NCBI GenBank assembly: GCA_019661865.1
Contig: JAIFWJ010000002.1
Coordinates: 1 to 50,897 of the forward strand
Direction: 5' to 3'
Origin: Candidatus Parcubacteria bacterium
GTDB lineage: Bacteria; Patescibacteriota; Minisyncoccia; Phycocordibacterales; Zambryskibacteraceae
Length of the DNA: 50,897 nt
In this document: piece by piece, positions 2,515-41,400 of the stretch
How the letters are laid out: each line of letters begins with the position of its first letter
How positions within the stretch are numbered: position 1 is the first letter of the stretch
The notes under the pieces: generated by a model
The model's input: the letters and a program-made list of their open reading frames with translations, nothing else
The model's database searches: none
What the model was told of the DNA's origin: nothing
Made by a program: the position numbers and the translations under genes

Positions 2515-2598
2515 AAAGAAGAGCTAAAAAAAGTATAGCAGAGTTAACTCTTTTAATGTGAAAGTTGTTCACATCCCCGCCCCGTGTATACTGAACCC

Positions 2599-3363
2599 AT
2601 GAAAATACTTTCTTGGAATGTAAATGGCCTAAGAGCGCTCCATAAGAAAGGCCAATTCGACTGGTTGCTTAAAGAAAGTCCAGATATCATCTGTCTACAG
2701 GAAACTAAGTCACAACCGGACCAGCTATCTCCAGAGGTGAGGAATCCAGAAGGTTACCATTCCTACTTCCACTTCCCTACAGTAAAGAAGGGTTACAGCG
2801 GAGTCTCTATATATAGTAAGAAAGAGCCAGAGAAGGTCATAAATGACTTAGGTATAGAGGAAATGGACCAAGAAGGCAGGCTAATACTGGCTGAATTTGA
2901 AGATTTTACCCTTATAAATACATACTTTCCCAATGGAGGAGGAGCACCCGAGAGGCTCGAATATAAACTTGAATTTTACAAGCATTTTCTAGATTTTGTC
3001 GAGAATTTGAGGAAAAAGCAGCCCAATATTGTGTTCTGCGGGGATGTAAATGTAGCTCATAAGCCCATAGATCTAGCTCGGCCTAAGGAGAATGAGACCC
3101 ATGTAGGCTTCCTCCCTATTGAAAGAGAGTGGATGAGCAAGGTAATTCAACATGATTGGATAGACGTATTCCGACATTTCTATCCTGAGAAAATTCAGTA
3201 TACATATTGGGATCAGAAGAGCTTCGCTCGTGAGAGAAATGTAGGCTGGAGAATAGATTATTTTTTTGTTACCCAAGAAATGTTAGACAAGGTAAAGTCC
3301 ATAAGAGTCCTTGATGAAGTCCTGGGCTCCGACCACTGTCCTATTGTCCTGGAGCTGAAATAA
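2599..3363 (+). CDS. xth: Exodeoxyribonuclease III / AP endonuclease
   Basis: MKILSWNVNGLRA, LQETK, GDVNVAH, GWRIDY and SDHCP motifs. Start moved to ATG 2599, 6 nt after TATACT. Confidence 0.97.
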   Translation: MKILSWNVNGLRALHKKGQFDWLLKESPDIICLQETKSQPDQLSPEVRNPEGYHSYFHFPTVKKGYSGVSIYSKKEPEKVINDLGIEEMDQEGRLILAEFEDFTLINTYFPNGGGAPERLEYKLEFYKHFLDFVENLRKKQPNIVFCGDVNVAHKPIDLARPKENETHVGFLPIEREWMSKVIQHDWIDVFRHFYPEKIQYTYWDQKSFARERNVGWRIDYFFVTQEMLDKVKSIRVLDEVLGSDHCPIVLELK

Positions 3364-3373
3364 GAGACAAAAG

Positions 3374-3382
3374 TTATCCACA
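3374..3382 (+). promoter_or_regulatory. Perfect DnaA box
   Basis: TTATCCACA in intergenic DNA. Confidence 0.65.
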
Positions 3383-3391
3383 GTTTTGTAT

Positions 3392-3419
3392 TGGACATTT
3401 TGTCCTTTACATTTACAAT
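3392..3419 (+). promoter_or_regulatory. Sigma70-like promoter
   Basis: TGGACA-16 bp-TACAAT. The -35 overlaps the palindrome GGACATTTTGTCC. Confidence 0.5.
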
Positions 3420-3422
3420 TGA

Positions 3423-3659
3423 CTCCAGACGCTTGAGGAAACTTCTGGCCCTAATCCCCTCTGTGGATTGCGAGAACCCAGATCAAAATCAAGCATTTGT
3501 TTTTTCGAGAGAGGCCACTCTCTGAAAGGTGTGCTGGTTCTAAACCGGCTACGCCCTGGAGCGCTCATCCTCAACTTTATTTTTTGCGATGTAGACCTCC
3601 TGGCTCCCCTTTTTGTTCTGGCACTTACTTTCACCGCTGCGCTTGCGCGGCGGTTTTTT
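3423..3659 (+). ncRNA. Candidate structured non-coding RNA (~235 nt), family unknown
   Basis: Upstream promoter, several stems (TTGAGGA/TCCTCAA, TCTGG/CCAGA, AATCC/GGATT, AGAGAG/CTCTCT, GCTGGTT/AACCGGC), a 3' terminator and no credible ORF. Confidence 0.5.
3633..3659 (+). terminator. Intrinsic terminator
   Basis: ACCGCTGCG-CTTG-CGCGGCGGT hairpin followed by a T tract. Confidence 0.75.
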
Positions 3660-3793
3660 ATTCTATAGAAATCCCTACCTTGAAGACATTTGGTCTTAAT
3701 CTACATTTGTCTCCTATTGCAAACTGTCTTCAAATAATGTTCATAAGGAAAATGGCTTAAAATAAGGCTTTTTTAGATCCTTAAGTACAATTC

Positions 3794-3821
3794 TGTGGAT
3801 AAGTGTGGGGAATGTGTGCAT
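3794..3821 (-). promoter_or_regulatory. DnaA box plus two degenerate tandem boxes
   Basis: TGTGGATAA (perfect, 3794-3802), then TGTGGGGAA and TGTGTGCAT. Confidence 0.6.
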
Positions 3822-3841
3822 TAGAGACAAATGGCCATAAT

Positions 3842-4100
3842 GTTTTCACGTGAAACTTTTATTAATATGTTTTACATGTAACATTAAGCCATGTACTCAG
3901 CAAAGCGTAAGTTCGGCAATATAGGGGAAAATGTGGCTGTAATGTTTCTCGAGAAACGTGGATTCAAAGTTCTGGAGCGTAATTACTTAAGAAAATGGGG
4001 TGAAATAGATATAGTGGCTGAGAAGTCAGATGTTCTACGCTTTATAGAGGTTAAAAGTGTTTCAGGTGAAATAAATAATAGGGAAGTTACACCTGAAACA
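3842..4100. repeat. parS: Cluster of four parS-like palindromes
   Basis: Matches to TGTTNCACGTGAAACA: 3842-3857 GTTTTCACGTGAAACT (13/16), 3943-3958 TGTTTCTCGAGAAACG (13/16), 4058-4073 TGTTTCAGGTGAAATA (14/16), 4085-4100 AGTTACACCTGAAACA (14/16). Confidence 0.65.
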
Positions 4101-4277
4101 GGTTATAGGCCGGAGGAAAACATGCATCCAGGCAAGATTAAGAGGCTCCATAGAGCCATTCAGACTTACTTACTTGAGAAACACCTAGATAAAGACTGGC
4201 AACTTGACCTTATAACTGTAAGGATTGATGAGAAGAATAGGAAAGCCAAAGCAGAAATGCTTGAAAACATCATTTAA
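3891..4277 (+). CDS. yraN: YraN (UPF0102) family nuclease
   Basis: G..GE..A..FL...GF..LERN...WGEIDIV...FIEVK signature. Confidence 0.93.
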   Translation: MYSAKRKFGNIGENVAVMFLEKRGFKVLERNYLRKWGEIDIVAEKSDVLRFIEVKSVSGEINNREVTPETGYRPEENMHPGKIKRLHRAIQTYLLEKHLDKDWQLDLITVRIDEKNRKAKAEMLENII

Positions 4278-4764: not shown

Positions 4765-4835
4765 CGGAGTGTAGTACAGCGGTAGTATACATCCATGGGG
4801 TGGATGCGGCCCGGGTTCAATTCCCGGCAGCCCGA
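4765..4835 (+). tRNA. tRNA-Pro(GGG), acceptor stem with two mismatches, no encoded CCA
   Basis: Anticodon arm CATCC-ATGGGGT-GGATG and T arm CCGGG-TTCAATT-CCCGG. Confidence 0.88.
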
Positions 4836-4874
4836 ATTGAATCGGTCGTTCAAGTTTGCTAGATTTGATCTTAC

Positions 4875-4945
4875 GCGGGATTAGTTTAATGGTAGAATGA
4901 CAGTTTTCCAAACTGTAGGTGGGAGTTCGATTCTCCCATCCCGCA
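4875..4945 (+). tRNA. tRNA-Gly(TCC), no encoded CCA
   Basis: Acceptor GCGGGAT/ATCCCGC, anticodon arm ACAGT-TTTCCAA-ACTGT, T loop TTCGATT. Confidence 0.95.
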
Positions 4946-5095
4946 CAAAATGAAAAAGTTCTGACTTCTGCCAGGGCTTTTTCATTTCTGATGGGAGAAT
5001 CGAACGAGGTGGGGTCGGGAGGAGATTCTCCTCCCGTGGAGGAAGGATTCGGAAAACCGTGGGTTTCCGAGAGGTGAGATATCTCCCATCCCGCA
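4946..5095. mobile_element. 150-bp tRNA-associated hairpin element bounded by a 14-bp direct repeat of the tRNA-Gly 3' end
   Basis: TCTCCCATCCCGCA at 4932-4945 and 5082-5095, an inverted copy of the T arm at 4990-5005, and three internal hairpins. Confidence 0.6.
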
Positions 5096-5148
5096 TAACT
5101 CACTGACTCTCGATTTTTTAGACAGGATAGGCTATTATCTTTTCACTT

Positions 5149-5222
5149 GCGACCATGGTTTAGTGGTAGAACACGTCCTTGCCAAGGATGAGATGGGAGT
5201 TCGATTCTCCCTGGTCGCACCA
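5149..5222 (+). tRNA. tRNA-Gly(GCC) with encoded CCA
   Basis: Acceptor GCGACCA/TGGTCGC, anticodon loop TTGCCAA, ends ACCA. Confidence 0.95.
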
Positions 5223-5251
5223 ACTCGCTTCTCGTGTAGAATTAGATAATT

Positions 5252-5326
5252 GCCCTCATAGCTCAATGGATAGAGTACTTGTCTTCGGAACAAGGGATGT
5301 GGGTTCGATTCCTGCTGGGGGCACCA
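5252..5326 (+). tRNA. tRNA-Arg(TCG) with encoded CCA
   Basis: Acceptor GCCCTCA/TGGGGGC, anticodon arm CTTGT-CTTCGGA-ACAAG, ends ACCA. Confidence 0.95.
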
Positions 5327-5327
5327 T

Positions 5328-6800
5328 ATGACACTTAAGCCAAAATTTAATATCCCCGAAGAGGTGAAGATTATTTCACGCGTCCTTTGGTCTGCCAAGT
5401 TTGAGAACTTTCTTGTCGGAGGATGCGTCCGAGACATCTTGTTGGGAAAAAAGCCCAAGGACTGGGATATCACAACTTCAGCACTTCCTCGAGAGATAGA
5501 AGCCTTATTTGAAAATACATTTTATGAAAATGCATACGGCACTGTCGGAGTGGTAAACGACACAACTACAGATTCAACACTCAAGGTTGTAGAAATTACT
5601 CCGTATCGTACTGAGTCTGGGTACTCAGATTTTCGTCATCCTGATGGAGTAAAGTGGGCTAAGACTCTAGAAGAGGACCTCAAGCGTCGTGACTTCACCA
5701 TAAATGCGCTCGCCTTAGATATAGAAAAAGTAGAATTAATTGATCTCTTCGACGGAGAGAAAGATCTTAAGAAGAATGTTATACGAACAGTTGGAGATCC
5801 GAACGAGCGCTTCACTGAAGATGCACTCCGCATGCTTAGAGCTCTGCGCTTCGCTTCTGAACTCGGCTTCGCTATTGATAGTGATACGCTTCTTGCAATA
5901 GATAAAAATAAAAATCTGCTTGAACATGTTTCTAAAGAGCGCATAAGAGATGAATTCGTGAAGATCATTATGTCCGACAATCCCTCGGTGGCACTCGGAA
6001 TCGCTACACAACTTGGATTACTCCAGTATATTTCTCCGGAATTTGAGAGGGGAGTGGGTATGGAGCAGAACAAGGCACATGCATACACTGTCTGGGAGCA
6101 TTTACTCCGCTCACTTGACCATGCGGCTAAGAAAAATTACCCTCTTCATGTACGCATCGCGGTCCTTCTCCATGATATAGCCAAGCCTCATACACGTAAG
6201 TGGCAGAACGAACAGTGGACTTTCTACGGACACGATGTAGTGGGGGCAAAAGTGACCAAGCAGATTCTCACAGATCTCAAGTTCCCAAAAGAAATTATAG
6301 ACAAGGTGCTGAAGCTCGTGCGCTGGCATATGTTCTTCTCCGACACGGAGACCATTACGCTCTCTGCAGTCCGTCGAATGGTGAGAAACGTTACCCCGGA
6401 GTTAATCTGGGATCTTATGGATGTCCGTGCAGCAGACCGCATCGGCACTGGAAGGCCTAAGGAGAGTCCATACAGACTCAGAAAGTATCACTCCATGATA
6501 GAAGAAGTGATGCGAGATCCCATATCAGTAAAGCAGCTCAAAGTAAGCGGGGGAGATGTCATGAAGATCGCGAGCATTACTCCTGGTCCAAAGATTGGGT
6601 TTATTCTAGAAATTCTTCTTTCAGAAGTTCTAGATGATCCTAAGCGAAATGAAACAGGCTACCTAGAGGAAAGAGTTAAAGAACTTGCAACCCTTCCTGA
6701 AAATGAGCTCAGGAAACAAGGAAGTGAGGCTCGAAGCAGGAATGAAAGTGAGGACGAGAAAGAAAGCGAGGAGATAAAAAAGAAATTCGGAGTGAAATAA
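5328..6800 (+). CDS. cca: CCA-adding tRNA nucleotidyltransferase with HD domain
   Basis: VGGCVRD...KDWDI, RRDFTINA, EDALRMLRALRF and LLHDIAK motifs. Confidence 0.92.
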   Translation: MTLKPKFNIPEEVKIISRVLWSAKFENFLVGGCVRDILLGKKPKDWDITTSALPREIEALFENTFYENAYGTVGVVNDTTTDSTLKVVEITPYRTESGYSDFRHPDGVKWAKTLEEDLKRRDFTINALALDIEKVELIDLFDGEKDLKKNVIRTVGDPNERFTEDALRMLRALRFASELGFAIDSDTLLAIDKNKNLLEHVSKERIRDEFVKIIMSDNPSVALGIATQLGLLQYISPEFERGVGMEQNKAHAYTVWEHLLRSLDHAAKKNYPLHVRIAVLLHDIAKPHTRKWQNEQWTFYGHDVVGAKVTKQILTDLKFPKEIIDKVLKLVRWHMFFSDTETITLSAVRRMVRNVTPELIWDLMDVRAADRIGTGRPKESPYRLRKYHSMIEEVMRDPISVKQLKVSGGDVMKIASITPGPKIGFILEILLSEVLDDPKRNETGYLEERVKELATLPENELRKQGSEARSRNESEDEKESEEIKKKFGVK

Positions 6801-40075: not shown

Positions 40076-40287
40076 CCTGTGGAATAAATGTTTACAAACT
40101 GAAGCTACGAGTGGAATAAATCAGCAGTTATGAACAGAGAAACAGAAAACAAAGAAAAAGCTATCTCCGATATTAATTCTTATACACATTTTAATTTTTT
40201 AAAAAACAAGATTCCATCTCTCAACAAAGAGCTTAAAAAGTTTTCCCCAGTTTCCACACCCCTAATAGTATTAACAAGTATTTATAT
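40076..40287 (+). other. oriC: Probable oriC
   Basis: AT-rich dnaA-dnaN spacer with boxes TTATGAACA (40128), TTATACACA (40180) and tandem TTTTCCCCA/GTTTCCACA (40241-40258), followed by CCC and TAA-TAG-TAT-TAA-CAA DnaA-trio-like repeats. Confidence 0.8.
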
Positions 40288-41400
40288 ATGAAAATAGAAT
40301 CTATTAGAGAAACACTTGTGGACGCAGTCTCTCGGGCGGAGAAGGTGTCAGGAAGAAACACAACCTTACCTGTGCTTGCTGGCATCTTACTTTCAACAGA
40401 CAAAAATCAACTTATTCTAAAGGCCACTAATTTAGATTTGGGAATTACAATTAAAGTGCCCGTTAAGGTTTCTCTAGAAGGAAAGGTGGTTGTACCGGCC
40501 CAAACTCTTAATCAGTTTCTAAACTCTATATCGAAAGAAAAATCTATCAGTCTCGAAAGTGTGAACCAGACTTTAAAGATAGTAACCTCTGGAAGTAGGG
40601 CCACGTTTAAAACTCTTCCTACAGAGGACTTTCCCATCATTCCAGAGCTAAGTGATGACCTGGCCTTCACTATGCCCACACGGGACTTTATAGGCGGTCT
40701 GAAGGCTGTTTCCTTTGCCGCTGCTCAAGGAAGTATGAAGCCAGAACTTTCCTCGGTTTTAGTTTCCTACCAGGGAGATGAATTGGTGTTTGCTGCTACG
40801 GATTCGTTTAGGCTGGCAGAAAAGAGAATTAAGGTAAAAAAGATTCCCCATTTTAATCAACTTCTCATTCCGGCTAAAAACGCTTCAGATGTGGTTAGGC
40901 TTTTCGATGGAATATCAGACGATCTGTCCGTTACCTTAGGAGATAATCAAATTGCCTTGAGGTCGGGAAATGTCTGCTTAACTTCAAGGGTTATTGACGG
41001 AACGTTCCCGGACTATAAACAGATAATTAAACAAATTTTTCTTGAAGAAAACATTTCTAGGGTCGTAGTTCTAAAACAAGATTTAACTAATGCTCTTAAA
41101 ACAGCTGTCGTCTTTTCAGATAATTTTAATCAGCTTATTCTAAAGGTAGTTCCTAAAGAAAAAGTCTTTCAGATAGAGTCTAAGAACAAGGATGTGGGAG
41201 AGAATGAGCAGTCTGTGCCAGCTGTGATAGAGGGTAAGGAGGTGACGATGAGTGTTAATAGCAGATATTTCACTGACAGTTTCCAGTCCATAGGGGTAGA
41301 TAGCATGAGTTTAAGTTTTAGTGGTGAGGGCCGGCCGATCTTGATACAAGGAGTGGGTGATAAAAGCTTTTTGTACATTGTGATGCCAATGAATAGATAA
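40288..41400 (+). CDS. dnaN: DNA polymerase III beta clamp
   Basis: ATNLD, ATDSFRLAE, SRVIDGTFPDY and IVMPM motifs. Confidence 0.97.
   Translation: MKIESIRETLVDAVSRAEKVSGRNTTLPVLAGILLSTDKNQLILKATNLDLGITIKVPVKVSLEGKVVVPAQTLNQFLNSISKEKSISLESVNQTLKIVTSGSRATFKTLPTEDFPIIPELSDDLAFTMPTRDFIGGLKAVSFAAAQGSMKPELSSVLVSYQGDELVFAATDSFRLAEKRIKVKKIPHFNQLLIPAKNASDVVRLFDGISDDLSVTLGDNQIALRSGNVCLTSRVIDGTFPDYKQIIKQIFLEENISRVVVLKQDLTNALKTAVVFSDNFNQLILKVVPKEKVFQIESKNKDVGENEQSVPAVIEGKEVTMSVNSRYFTDSFQSIGVDSMSLSFSGEGRPILIQGVGDKSFLYIVMPMNR

Follow-up and report, generated by a model that had tools for sequence, protein, structure and literature searches.

Several described bacterial RNAs and promoters offer points of comparison for the element reported here, a predicted non-coding RNA gene on the plus strand of a 50,897-nucleotide (nt) stretch of DNA from a Candidatus Parcubacteria bacterium (contig JAIFWJ010000002.1 of assembly GCA_019661865.1, positions 1 to 50,897; this whole stretch is called the window below), where it follows the exonuclease III family gene xth. 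Like 6S RNA and Ms1, it is a single-copy, stand-alone and mostly helical RNA of a few hundred nt; unlike them, it has no match to their models, no central bubble and no closing stem, it has additional domains on its 5′ side, and its apical loop is large and conserved. Its 3′ part is an imperfect rod with conserved internal motifs, which at ~110 nt has about the size and shape of the 4.5S RNA of the signal recognition particle (SRP; RF00169 and RF01854). However, it matches neither SRP model, lacks the GNAR tetraloop and the domain-IV loops, and has an apical loop of 15-30 nt; nor is there an Ffh to bind, because this genome and 40 relatives are without SRP54-type GTPases. OLE, the raiA motif, ROOL and GOLLD are likewise lineage-restricted, multi-helix, covarying RNAs with single-stranded blocks and a conserved neighborhood. 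All four are in Rfam. The new RNA is homologous to none of the four and shorter than OLE, ROOL and GOLLD; it is confined to Patescibacteria and has a promoter with a DnaA box. In this last respect it recalls the DnaA-controlled dnaA and nrdAB promoters of Escherichia coli, as a consensus box stands just 5′ of its core promoter at a conserved distance, although the product here is a non-coding RNA and another conserved site, TGTCCTTTA, accompanies the box. The plasmid antisense RNAs RNA I and CopA also display a conserved loop on a long imperfect hairpin and have a link to a replication-control protein at the promoter, but the new RNA is chromosomal, single-copy and much larger, has extra domains and has no overlapping sense transcript.

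We consider it very probable that the interval 3426-3659 is a real gene of a new structured RNA family. It appears to be a stand-alone non-coding RNA gene, with its own promoter, an intrinsic terminator and no conserved open reading frame (ORF), and it is kept in relatives. An original prediction had proposed an unassigned structured RNA gene here, noting a promoter (TGGACA-16-TACAAT) and a strong CUUG-loop terminator that bracket ~235 nt; both signals are present, no Rfam family covers the interval, the helices of its homologs covary, and the short ORFs that overlap it are not conserved. Within the single sequence, a consensus scan found two promoter-like sites where 1.3 were expected and two terminator-like sites where 0.9 were expected, such consensus sites arising by chance about once per 800 bp. 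The plus strand folds at -77.2 kcal/mol (z -2.77, 1 of 200 shuffles equally good), as compared with a z of -0.98 for the minus strand (31 of 200), and the G+C content of the interval is 50.4% vs. 32-41% in its flanks. Because these signals are weak when taken alone, the case rests on comparison with relatives. In the homologs, a -10 element (TATACT, TACAAT or TATAAT) stands 5-8 nt ahead of a conserved 5′ motif, while the -35-like TGGACA is specific to the window copy. A hairpin followed by a U-run ends all 30 of the RNAs from the family that we compared. An RNA whose position across a whole order is as regular as that of a housekeeping gene, whose helices are borne out by compensatory change and which has no match in Rfam is a good candidate for a new functional RNA class, in a group, the Patescibacteria (candidate phyla radiation, CPR), that holds a large share of bacterial diversity, is almost entirely uncultured and has an RNA biology that is barely explored.

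The family is absent from Rfam 15. When the whole window was compared with this database by cmscan, as the original prediction had proposed, only four tRNAs reached gathering scores and nothing did so over the RNA interval. At E ≤ 10, the region 3300-3950 gave only low-scoring chance matches driven by the terminator, the best of them anti-hemB with 22.7 bits vs. the 49.5 required. The original prediction could not match the RNA to tmRNA, SRP RNA, RNase P RNA or 6S RNA, and the genome (599 kb, 97% complete) agrees with it: RNase P RNA is encoded elsewhere (C1:16669-16995, 105.6 bits), as is tmRNA (C9:19031-19435, 82.3 bits), 6S RNA (RF00013) has no match at E ≤ 10 in the genome and no 6S family matches over the RNA region, and the small and large SRP RNA models (RF00169, RF01854) match neither in the genome nor in the RNA region. 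RF00169 matched in none of 41 genomes of the family. Two resemblances were considered and set aside, one to the RNase P core (GAGGAAAC/AACCGGC), dropped since the true RNase P RNA lies on C1, and one an SRP-like word, GGAAGAAAGCAG, at C4:~62150, which is a plain hairpin beside a tRNA with no SRP match. A description of this RNA was not found in the part of the literature that our search reached; subscription journals and supplements could hold one.

A DNA search of 40 relatives matched only the segment with the DnaA box and promoter, in five of them, and exposed a conserved order of xth, a gap and yraN. Searching 86 genomes of the family for YraN gave 30 loci. In all 30 the order was xth-RNA-yraN, and in all 30 a related RNA of 183-312 nt (median 259) lies between a -10 box and a terminator; a first profile hidden Markov model recovered 23 of these loci. 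We then relied on two covariance models of the 3′ domain, R1 and the later R2 (the model defined here has 144 positions). R1 matched in 50 of the 86 family genomes, exactly once in each, and the window copy was matched at 3497-3635 with E-values of 1e-16 (R1) and 1e-14 (R2). Whole-genome searches were run with strict filters and therefore under-count, while searches anchored on xth were run with filters off. In the anchored mode, R2 placed the RNA directly 3′ of xth in four of five genomes from further genera that had previously been negative, and in 29 other families it gave six matches with E < 0.01 plus one marginal match. Across 149 whole genomes of the order, R1 had four true matches and R2 six, each with one false positive, and these searches add three genomes (G027, G036 and G183). 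The RNA was found in at least nine other families of the order. A sample of 150 genomes from the class, 145 of them from other orders, yielded one marginal match that is probably false. Among the matches listed, records of Candidatus Zambryskibacteria, Candidatus Taylorbacteria and the Parcubacteria group have model matches. Rejected matches comprise L104 (77 nt, E 0.006), which is probably false, L097, in a coding region, and L102, inside gyrA, which is also where the seventh R2 match in the order (G233) lies. A module of a DnaA box plus TGTCCTTTA stands 3′ of xth in 15 of the 29 loci from other families; when eight such modules were inspected by eye, six held recognizably similar RNAs that the model had missed. 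A pattern scan of contigs gave at least 120 stretches with many chance matches in unrelated phyla, and only model matches were used.

The constant neighbor of the RNA is xth, upstream on the same strand. Genera g23 and g29 have the RNA 2.3-2.8 kb from yraN, the next gene is a convergent cca in four other families (L093, L095, L098 and L101), and cca is a neighbor of the RNA in two more families. In other genera, only one weak match was found upstream of yraN among 19 loci, as compared with the four of five xth-anchored genomes, and we therefore take the RNA to follow xth and not yraN. The family occurs once per genome, immediately 3′ of xth, through much of one Paceibacteria-type order of Patescibacteria. 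Shortened RNAs were seen in genus g32: L031 (G072) is 183 nt long, with most of its 5′ domain, P3 and 5′ P4 strand missing (R1 E 0.004), and L122 (G077) is a 117-nt match. These are possibly decaying copies.

Covariation was assessed on three alignments: A5, with 57 rows aligned to R2; A4, aligned with R1; and A2, a structure-blind MAFFT alignment. On A5, 76.0% of cells are paired, compared with 65.8 ± 0.6% in shuffles, and the covariation score is 0.351 vs. 0.205 ± 0.008 (0 of 500 shuffles as high), falling to 0.15-0.17 when the partners are slid by one column; double changes occur in 33 of 39 pairs. On A2, the helices P2 and P2a have 77.4% paired cells vs. 59.3% in shuffles and a covariation of 0.536 vs. 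0.265 (0/500), with double changes in 10 of 11 pairs. P7 and P5b covary strongly on A4, although R1, the model that made this alignment, did not contain them. For example, the pair 150/195 of A4 is G-C 10 times, C-G 8 times, A-U 7 times and U-A 7 times, and the pair 143/203 is C-G 21 times and U-A 14 times. P3 has compensatory changes in all six of its pairs and 78.8% of its cells paired, with ~20 of the 57 rows gapped there. Taken together, these results argue strongly for a conserved secondary structure that is backed by compensatory changes, and covarying homologs, whose absence would have counted against the original prediction, do exist.

The CUGG/CUGG segment of P4 behaves differently from the helices around it. 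Its U·G pair is kept in 54 of 56 rows, its G·U pair in 57 of 57 and its G-C pair in 57 of 57, while adjacent pairs covary freely. An invariant tandem U·G/G·U of this kind argues for a recognition element and not for mere maintenance of a helix. Since the wobble pairs are invariant, they also fix the plus strand as the transcribed one, which agrees with the earlier remark that G-U pairs favor this strand.

The fold was built by hand and via models, as RNAalifold on the plain MAFFT alignment returned only four pairs. Coordinates of its elements are given in Table 1 along with the other features of the locus. The conserved 5′ end (AGACGC in CCAGACGC) is suggested by the spacing from the -10 element to be the very start of the transcript. 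P2 surrounds a purine-rich internal loop (GGAAAC) and the hairpin P2a, whose loop contains CUCU. The linker that follows has the family consensus (G)CAUUGUUCUU or UAGUUCUUU, also written GCAUUGUUCUU or UAGUUCUUU (UUGUUCUU-like). In the rod, P4 reaches 15 pairs in the best members, with GAAAG/CUUUC or the compensatory GGAAG/CUUCC in addition to CUGG/CUGG; above it stand, in order, P4′, P5a, P5b (GGAUG/CAUCC or GGACG/CGUCC) and P7, which closes the apical loop. Among 56 loops of 15-30 nt, G makes up 4% of the residues, and the third residue is C in 55 of them and the fourth is A in 53. With the loop constrained to stay open, 49 of 51 homologs have the single-hairpin rod as their minimum free energy structure, and its energy is only a few kcal/mol from the optimum found with no constraint. 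Between the rod and the terminator, members of the family have 0-3 variable hairpins. The terminator loop GAUCGCC is common in the family (e.g., L019, L021, L033 and L034; CCGCGGAUCGCCCCGC), where the window copy has CUUG. By eye, no covariation was seen between this loop and the conserved 5′ end, and no conserved 3′ partner of the 5′ end was seen in the alignments.

Table 1. Predicted features of the RNA gene, its control region and its surroundings, in window coordinates.
Feature	Position	Strand	Details
RNA gene	3426-3659	+	Predicted transcript of ~234 nt; 5′ end from -10 spacing, 3′ end from terminator
Promoter	3392-3419	+	-35-like TGGACA 3392-3397, 16-nt spacer, -10 TACAAT 3414-3419; 10/12 consensus matches
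Intrinsic terminator	3633-3659	+	Hairpin 3633-3654, 9 bp (7 G-C), CUUG loop, then U6
Conserved single-stranded 5′ end	3425-3432	+	CCAGACGC; consensus YAGRCGC; columns invariant or nearly so in alignments A1 and A2
5′ domain, with P2	3431-3494	+	P2 GCUUGA 3431-3436/UCAAGC 3489-3494
P2a	3444-3482	+	UCUGG 3444-3448/CCAGA 3478-3482; AAUCC 3453-3457/GGAUU 3465-3469; loop CCUCUGU
Linker J2/3	3495-3507	+	AUUUGUUUUUUCG; window copy diverged from consensus
P3 hairpin	3508-3523	+	AGAGAG-GCCA-CUCUCU
Rod-like hairpin	3524-3632	+	~110 nt (P4-P4′-P5-P7)
P4	3524-3632		GAAAG 3524-3528/CUUUC 3628-3632; GUG 3529-3531/CAC 3622-3624; CUGG 3534-3537/CUGG 3618-3621
P4′	3542-3614		AAA 3542-3544/UUU 3612-3614; GG 3547-3548/CC 3608-3609; weak in window copy
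P5	3553-3604		GCC 3553-3555/GGC 3602-3604; GGAG 3558-3561/CUCC 3597-3600
P7	3566-3591	+	CAUC 3566-3569/GAUG 3588-3591
Apical loop	3570-3587	+	CUCAACUUUAUUUUUUGC; consensus C-N-C-A-(A/C)-Y-Y-U-U, then U/A-rich run
Variant of TAAAGGACA-type site	3362-3370	+	AAGAGACAA; recurring site; overlaps xth stop codon, just 5′ of DnaA box
Perfect DnaA box	3374-3382	+	TTATCCACA; ~45-52 nt 5′ of predicted RNA start
TGTCCTTTA site	3401-3409	+	In promoter spacer; starts ~25-27 nt after DnaA-box start; probable regulator-binding site
Control region before yraN	3794-3829	.	Downstream of, and not part of, the RNA
Perfect inverted DnaA box	3794-3802		TGTGGATAA
Degenerate DnaA box	3804-3812		TGTGGGGAA
Third word of the control region	3821-3829		TTAGAGACA
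xth (exonuclease III family)	2584-3363	as RNA	Upstream neighbor
yraN (UPF0102/YraN)	3891-4277	as RNA	Downstream; 230-nt spacer from RNA
cca (CCA-adding enzyme/poly(A) polymerase family, HD domain)	5328-6800		1.7 kb downstream of RNA
Likely oriC	40076-40287		dnaA-dnaN spacer; degenerate DnaA boxes TGTGGAATAA, AGTGGAATAA, TTATACACA and TTTCCACA; AT-rich tract

About half of the stems listed in the original prediction survive in this fold. TCTGG/CCAGA around AATCC/GGATT corresponds to P2a and AGAGAG-gcca-CTCTCT to P3. The pairing 3433-3439/3568-3574, judged by eye, is not kept by other members; CCUCAAC at 3569-3575 overlaps the last pair of P7 (C3569) and the start of the apical loop. Neither the TTTC/GAAA extension of P3 nor GCTGGTT-cta-AACCGGC is conserved, and the alternative CTCCAG/CTGGAG is not a conserved pairing; in the family, GAAAG and CUGG pair with the distal strands of P4. 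Our own early models were also revised: a P5 hairpin of GAGGA/UCCUC had poor support on A4 and a P6 of GCGAU/AUCGC was replaced as well, P5b and P7 taking over from both. GCGAU/AUCGC is a possible alternative pairing in some members of genus g1.

The conservation extends into the promoter. In 55 of 56 loci, the RNA is preceded by a DnaA box that has one mismatch or none and is constant in orientation and offset (37 boxes are perfect), compared with 19 of 199 control windows, and a TGTCCTTTA-like word is present in 53 of 56 at a constant offset from the box. In L019, by our own count, the box lies at about -53 to -45 and TTGTCC at about -28 to -23 with respect to the predicted start. Words of the AAGGACAA/AAAGACAA type occupy the place of AAGAGACAA in many homologous loci. 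The control region at 3794-3829 belongs to the same conserved intergenic module in genera that keep yraN there. Other families have just the upstream box next to the RNA. The window has three perfect DnaA boxes in its 50.9 kb (at 3374, 3794 and 46390). In the genome as a whole there are 19 in 599 kb, of which 14 are intergenic although ~90% of the sequence is coding, and DnaA is for this reason probably a general transcription factor here. Several perfect boxes were seen 40-180 nt upstream of gene starts. We regard it as fairly probable that the RNA gene is regulated by DnaA. The original prediction had read the box as a sign of cell-cycle control; its position is indeed conserved, but control by DnaA does not appear to be special to this gene. 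The combination of a DnaA box and a second site at one promoter offers a testable link between the replication initiator and RNA regulation in genomes of ~600 kb.

The TGTCCTTTA/TAAAGGACA word (variants AAAGACA and AGAGACA) recurs in the promoter spacer, 5′ of the DnaA box, after the downstream box cluster and before yraN, and is probably the site of a regulator. In g23 and g29 it is also found in the 5′ domain of the RNA (CAAGGACAA), where it forms an inverted repeat with the promoter copy. Promoters in this genome look like the extended -10 type with no -35 element. Ahead of ATG codons, positions -15 to -7 show a TGnTAnnAT profile, which suggests that mRNAs are mostly leaderless, as most genes appear to be.

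As to function, the architecture is one of a covarying scaffold with a few invariant patches (the 5′ end, the linker, the wobble motif and the loop), and long covarying helices combined with few invariant patches resemble protein-bound RNAs such as SRP RNA, 6S RNA and Y RNAs. It is on this ground that we propose a trans-acting ribonucleoprotein. Transcription would be set by DnaA, and hence by replication or cell-cycle status, together with a TGTCCTTTA-binding factor; the RNA would act in trans as a stable, protein-bound molecule, with recognition surfaces in the apical loop, the 5′ end and those stretches of the rod whose sequence is invariant, and with the covarying helices as scaffold. That it is protein-bound, rather than a base-pairing antisense regulator, is a tentative suggestion in which our confidence is limited. 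For the reading as a whole, a new RNA gene that is regulated by DnaA and protein-bound in trans, our overall judgment, a compromise over its parts, is moderately favorable. A more specific version, speculative and of low probability, makes the RNA part of a ribonucleoprotein peculiar to this lineage, through which DnaA (replication) status would be tied to a core process, in bacteria that would have lost several universal RNA-linked systems (neither SRP proteins and SRP RNA, nor a 6S match, nor an anti-Shine-Dalgarno tail of the 16S rRNA was found here); for instance, the facing invariant UGG triplets might open and bind the CCA ends of tRNAs, in the manner of the T-box bulge or the L15 loop of RNase P. 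If so, the RNA would sense or regulate the integrity of tRNA 3′ ends, which would explain its place between xth and cca. Pull-down, structure probing and mutagenesis can be aimed at the tandem G·U motif and at the conserved loop, and the 144-position model can be used to annotate the gene in metagenome-assembled genomes.

Alternatively, the RNA may be a base-pairing, trans-acting small RNA (sRNA), in which the loop (CNCA(A/C)YYUU with its U-run), the 5′ AGACGC and the linker UUGUUCUU pair with target mRNAs or some other RNA, whose translation or stability they would control, and the rod merely displays the loop, as in the plasmid antisense RNAs. The three conserved single-stranded blocks and the stand-alone promoter-terminator gene fit this idea, as does the G-poor, pyrimidine-rich loop, which is like the seed loops of C/U-rich regulatory RNAs, and a genome without Hfq and CsrA would suit chaperone-independent loop pairing. 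However, as most genes appear leaderless and have no Shine-Dalgarno sequence, the usual target site is missing; moreover, 240-310 nt with a ~55-bp rod and invariant motifs is more elaborate than known base-pairing sRNAs need, and the invariance of the CUGG/CUGG wobbles is left unexplained. We consider base pairing unlikely on balance. Related roles were dropped, namely a CsrA sponge and an Hfq partner, since neither gene was found in the genome, and an anti-Shine-Dalgarno mimic, to which the resemblance of the loop to GAUCACCUCCUU had pointed; a decoy of this type makes little sense in a genome without Shine-Dalgarno usage (14.6% vs. a background of 16.9%). Less probable still is a counterpart of 6S RNA or Ms1 in this lineage, an abundant, largely double-stranded RNA that would bind RNA polymerase, tune transcription globally and have diverged beyond the Rfam model. 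Of the near-universal housekeeping RNAs, 6S RNA alone was not found in the genome, the new RNA has one copy, a mostly helical fold and a strong promoter of its own, and a link to growth or replication via DnaA would suit a global regulator. Yet no 6S family matches the region even at E ≤ 10, the rod has only small internal loops in place of a large central bubble between two long helices, and no closing stem formed by the 5′ and 3′ ends was seen by eye. A -10-like word in the loop is modestly enriched at four of six matching positions (0.70 vs. 0.53; 2/500) but not at five of six (0.16 vs. 0.17 in shuffles).

The three remaining explanations can be judged largely from the surroundings and from the pattern of substitutions. 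In the window and in all 30 family loci, the RNA lies upstream of yraN in the same orientation and ends in a terminator, as would a cis-acting leader, attenuator or riboswitch that controls yraN through termination. Against such a role, a 230-nt spacer with its own cluster of DnaA boxes and a promoter-like -10 right before the yraN ATG separates the two, their distance varies from 0.23 to 2.8 kb (2.3-2.8 kb in g23 and g29), and a convergent cca comes next in four families; the downstream gene thus differs, which is why we do not regard the RNA as a leader. No conserved antiterminator pairing was seen either, and the terminator is constitutive in form in 30/30. A cis-acting leader, largely refuted by synteny, now seems very improbable. 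We give as little credence to conservation at the level of DNA, by which the locus would be an origin or a DnaA-titrating or -reactivating site (datA- or DARS-like) and the RNA incidental. Two perfect boxes and degenerate ones do flank the interval and the boxes are conserved, but only the upstream box travels with the RNA in other families, the GC-skew minimum lies at 40681 in the dnaA-dnaN spacer, and the compensatory changes, the G·U pairs on the plus strand only, the promoter and the terminator point to selection on a transcript. An origin of replication at the RNA locus was rejected on GC skew. The least credible of the three is a small protein encoded by an overlapping ORF of 44-87 codons. 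Four ORFs overlap the RNA, and a very permissive tblastn search gave one match over 27 residues at E 3.7e-4; no conserved peptide was found in any of the four, however. The tblastn matches lie in varying frames where the apical region is conserved as nucleotide sequence, and no match extends over a whole ORF. In the 30 homologs the longest ORFs have 32 to 86 codons and share no frame, in keeping with the earlier view that no ORF here is plausible, helix substitutions are compensatory, and loop indels are not multiples of three (25, 18 and 13 loops fall into the three classes of length modulo 3).

A number of points weigh against the new gene, its regulation or its function as we read them. A4 and A5 were fitted to models that hold P3, P4 and P4′, and the counts for these helices therefore lean toward the structure; because A5 leans to its own model, we give more weight to the tests of P7/P5b on A4 and P2/P2a on A2. 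P4′ and P5a are only 61-63% paired on A5, this alignment includes the probable false positive L102, and the shuffle controls take no account of phylogenetic relatedness. Beyond the family, the searches gave patchy results (six matches in 149 genomes of the order, one marginal match in 150 of the class), making the true breadth of the family uncertain. The window copy itself is diverged, with a U-rich linker, a weak P4′ and an R2 score of 67.6 bits, which ranks 41st of 57 matches, the best members scoring 120-130 bits. Many promoters of this genome have DnaA boxes, and the box hence does not point to a replication-specific role. The transcript ends and the expression of the gene are predicted from sequence signals, and the idea of protein binding comes only from the contrast between invariant and covarying positions.

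The lack of SRP components bears on the identity of the RNA. The Ffh M domain (PF02978), the SRP54 GTPase domain (PF00448) and the Ffh equivalog (TIGR00959) were not found in the genome, and a search for SRP-GTPase motifs in all frames gave no DTAGR word with G1 and G4 nearby. In 40 relatives from 17 families, SRP-type GTPases were represented only by fragments with a P-loop and nothing more. As the genome lacks SRP proteins, an identity as SRP RNA is excluded more firmly than by the covariance models. If true, this would mean a whole bacterial order without SRP and FtsY; within the portion of the literature covered, we found no paper on SRP absence in these bacteria.

The match of the 16S rRNA gene (G000:C2:56961-57538, minus strand; L090) to the Rfam small-subunit model, which has 1533 positions, stops at position 1520. 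Helix 45 is followed by GGAGUAAUUCAAUUUG in place of GAUCACCUCCUU, and CCUCC is absent from the next 900 nt. Shine-Dalgarno-like words stand upstream of 14.6% of 349 ATG-started ORFs vs. 16.9% inside genes. Summed along the contig, GC skew is lowest at 40681, and the origin most likely lies in the dnaA-dnaN spacer, 37 kb from the RNA gene.

Some smaller features of the intergenic regions were also recorded. Between the RNA terminator and the downstream DnaA boxes, at 3753-3776, is a weak hairpin rich in A+U with T6 after it (GGCTTAAAATAAGGCTTTTTT), which is not conserved in the relatives inspected. The palindrome TTTCACGTGAAAC (3844-3856 in the window) is found ~35-45 nt 5′ of the yraN start in most family loci, and a similar TTCACGTG follows the TGTCCTTTA site at G000:C1:~957. 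Between the RNA and cca, the window holds yraN, a C39 peptidase gene and four tRNA genes (4765-5323), and the tRNA genes lead straight into the start of cca.

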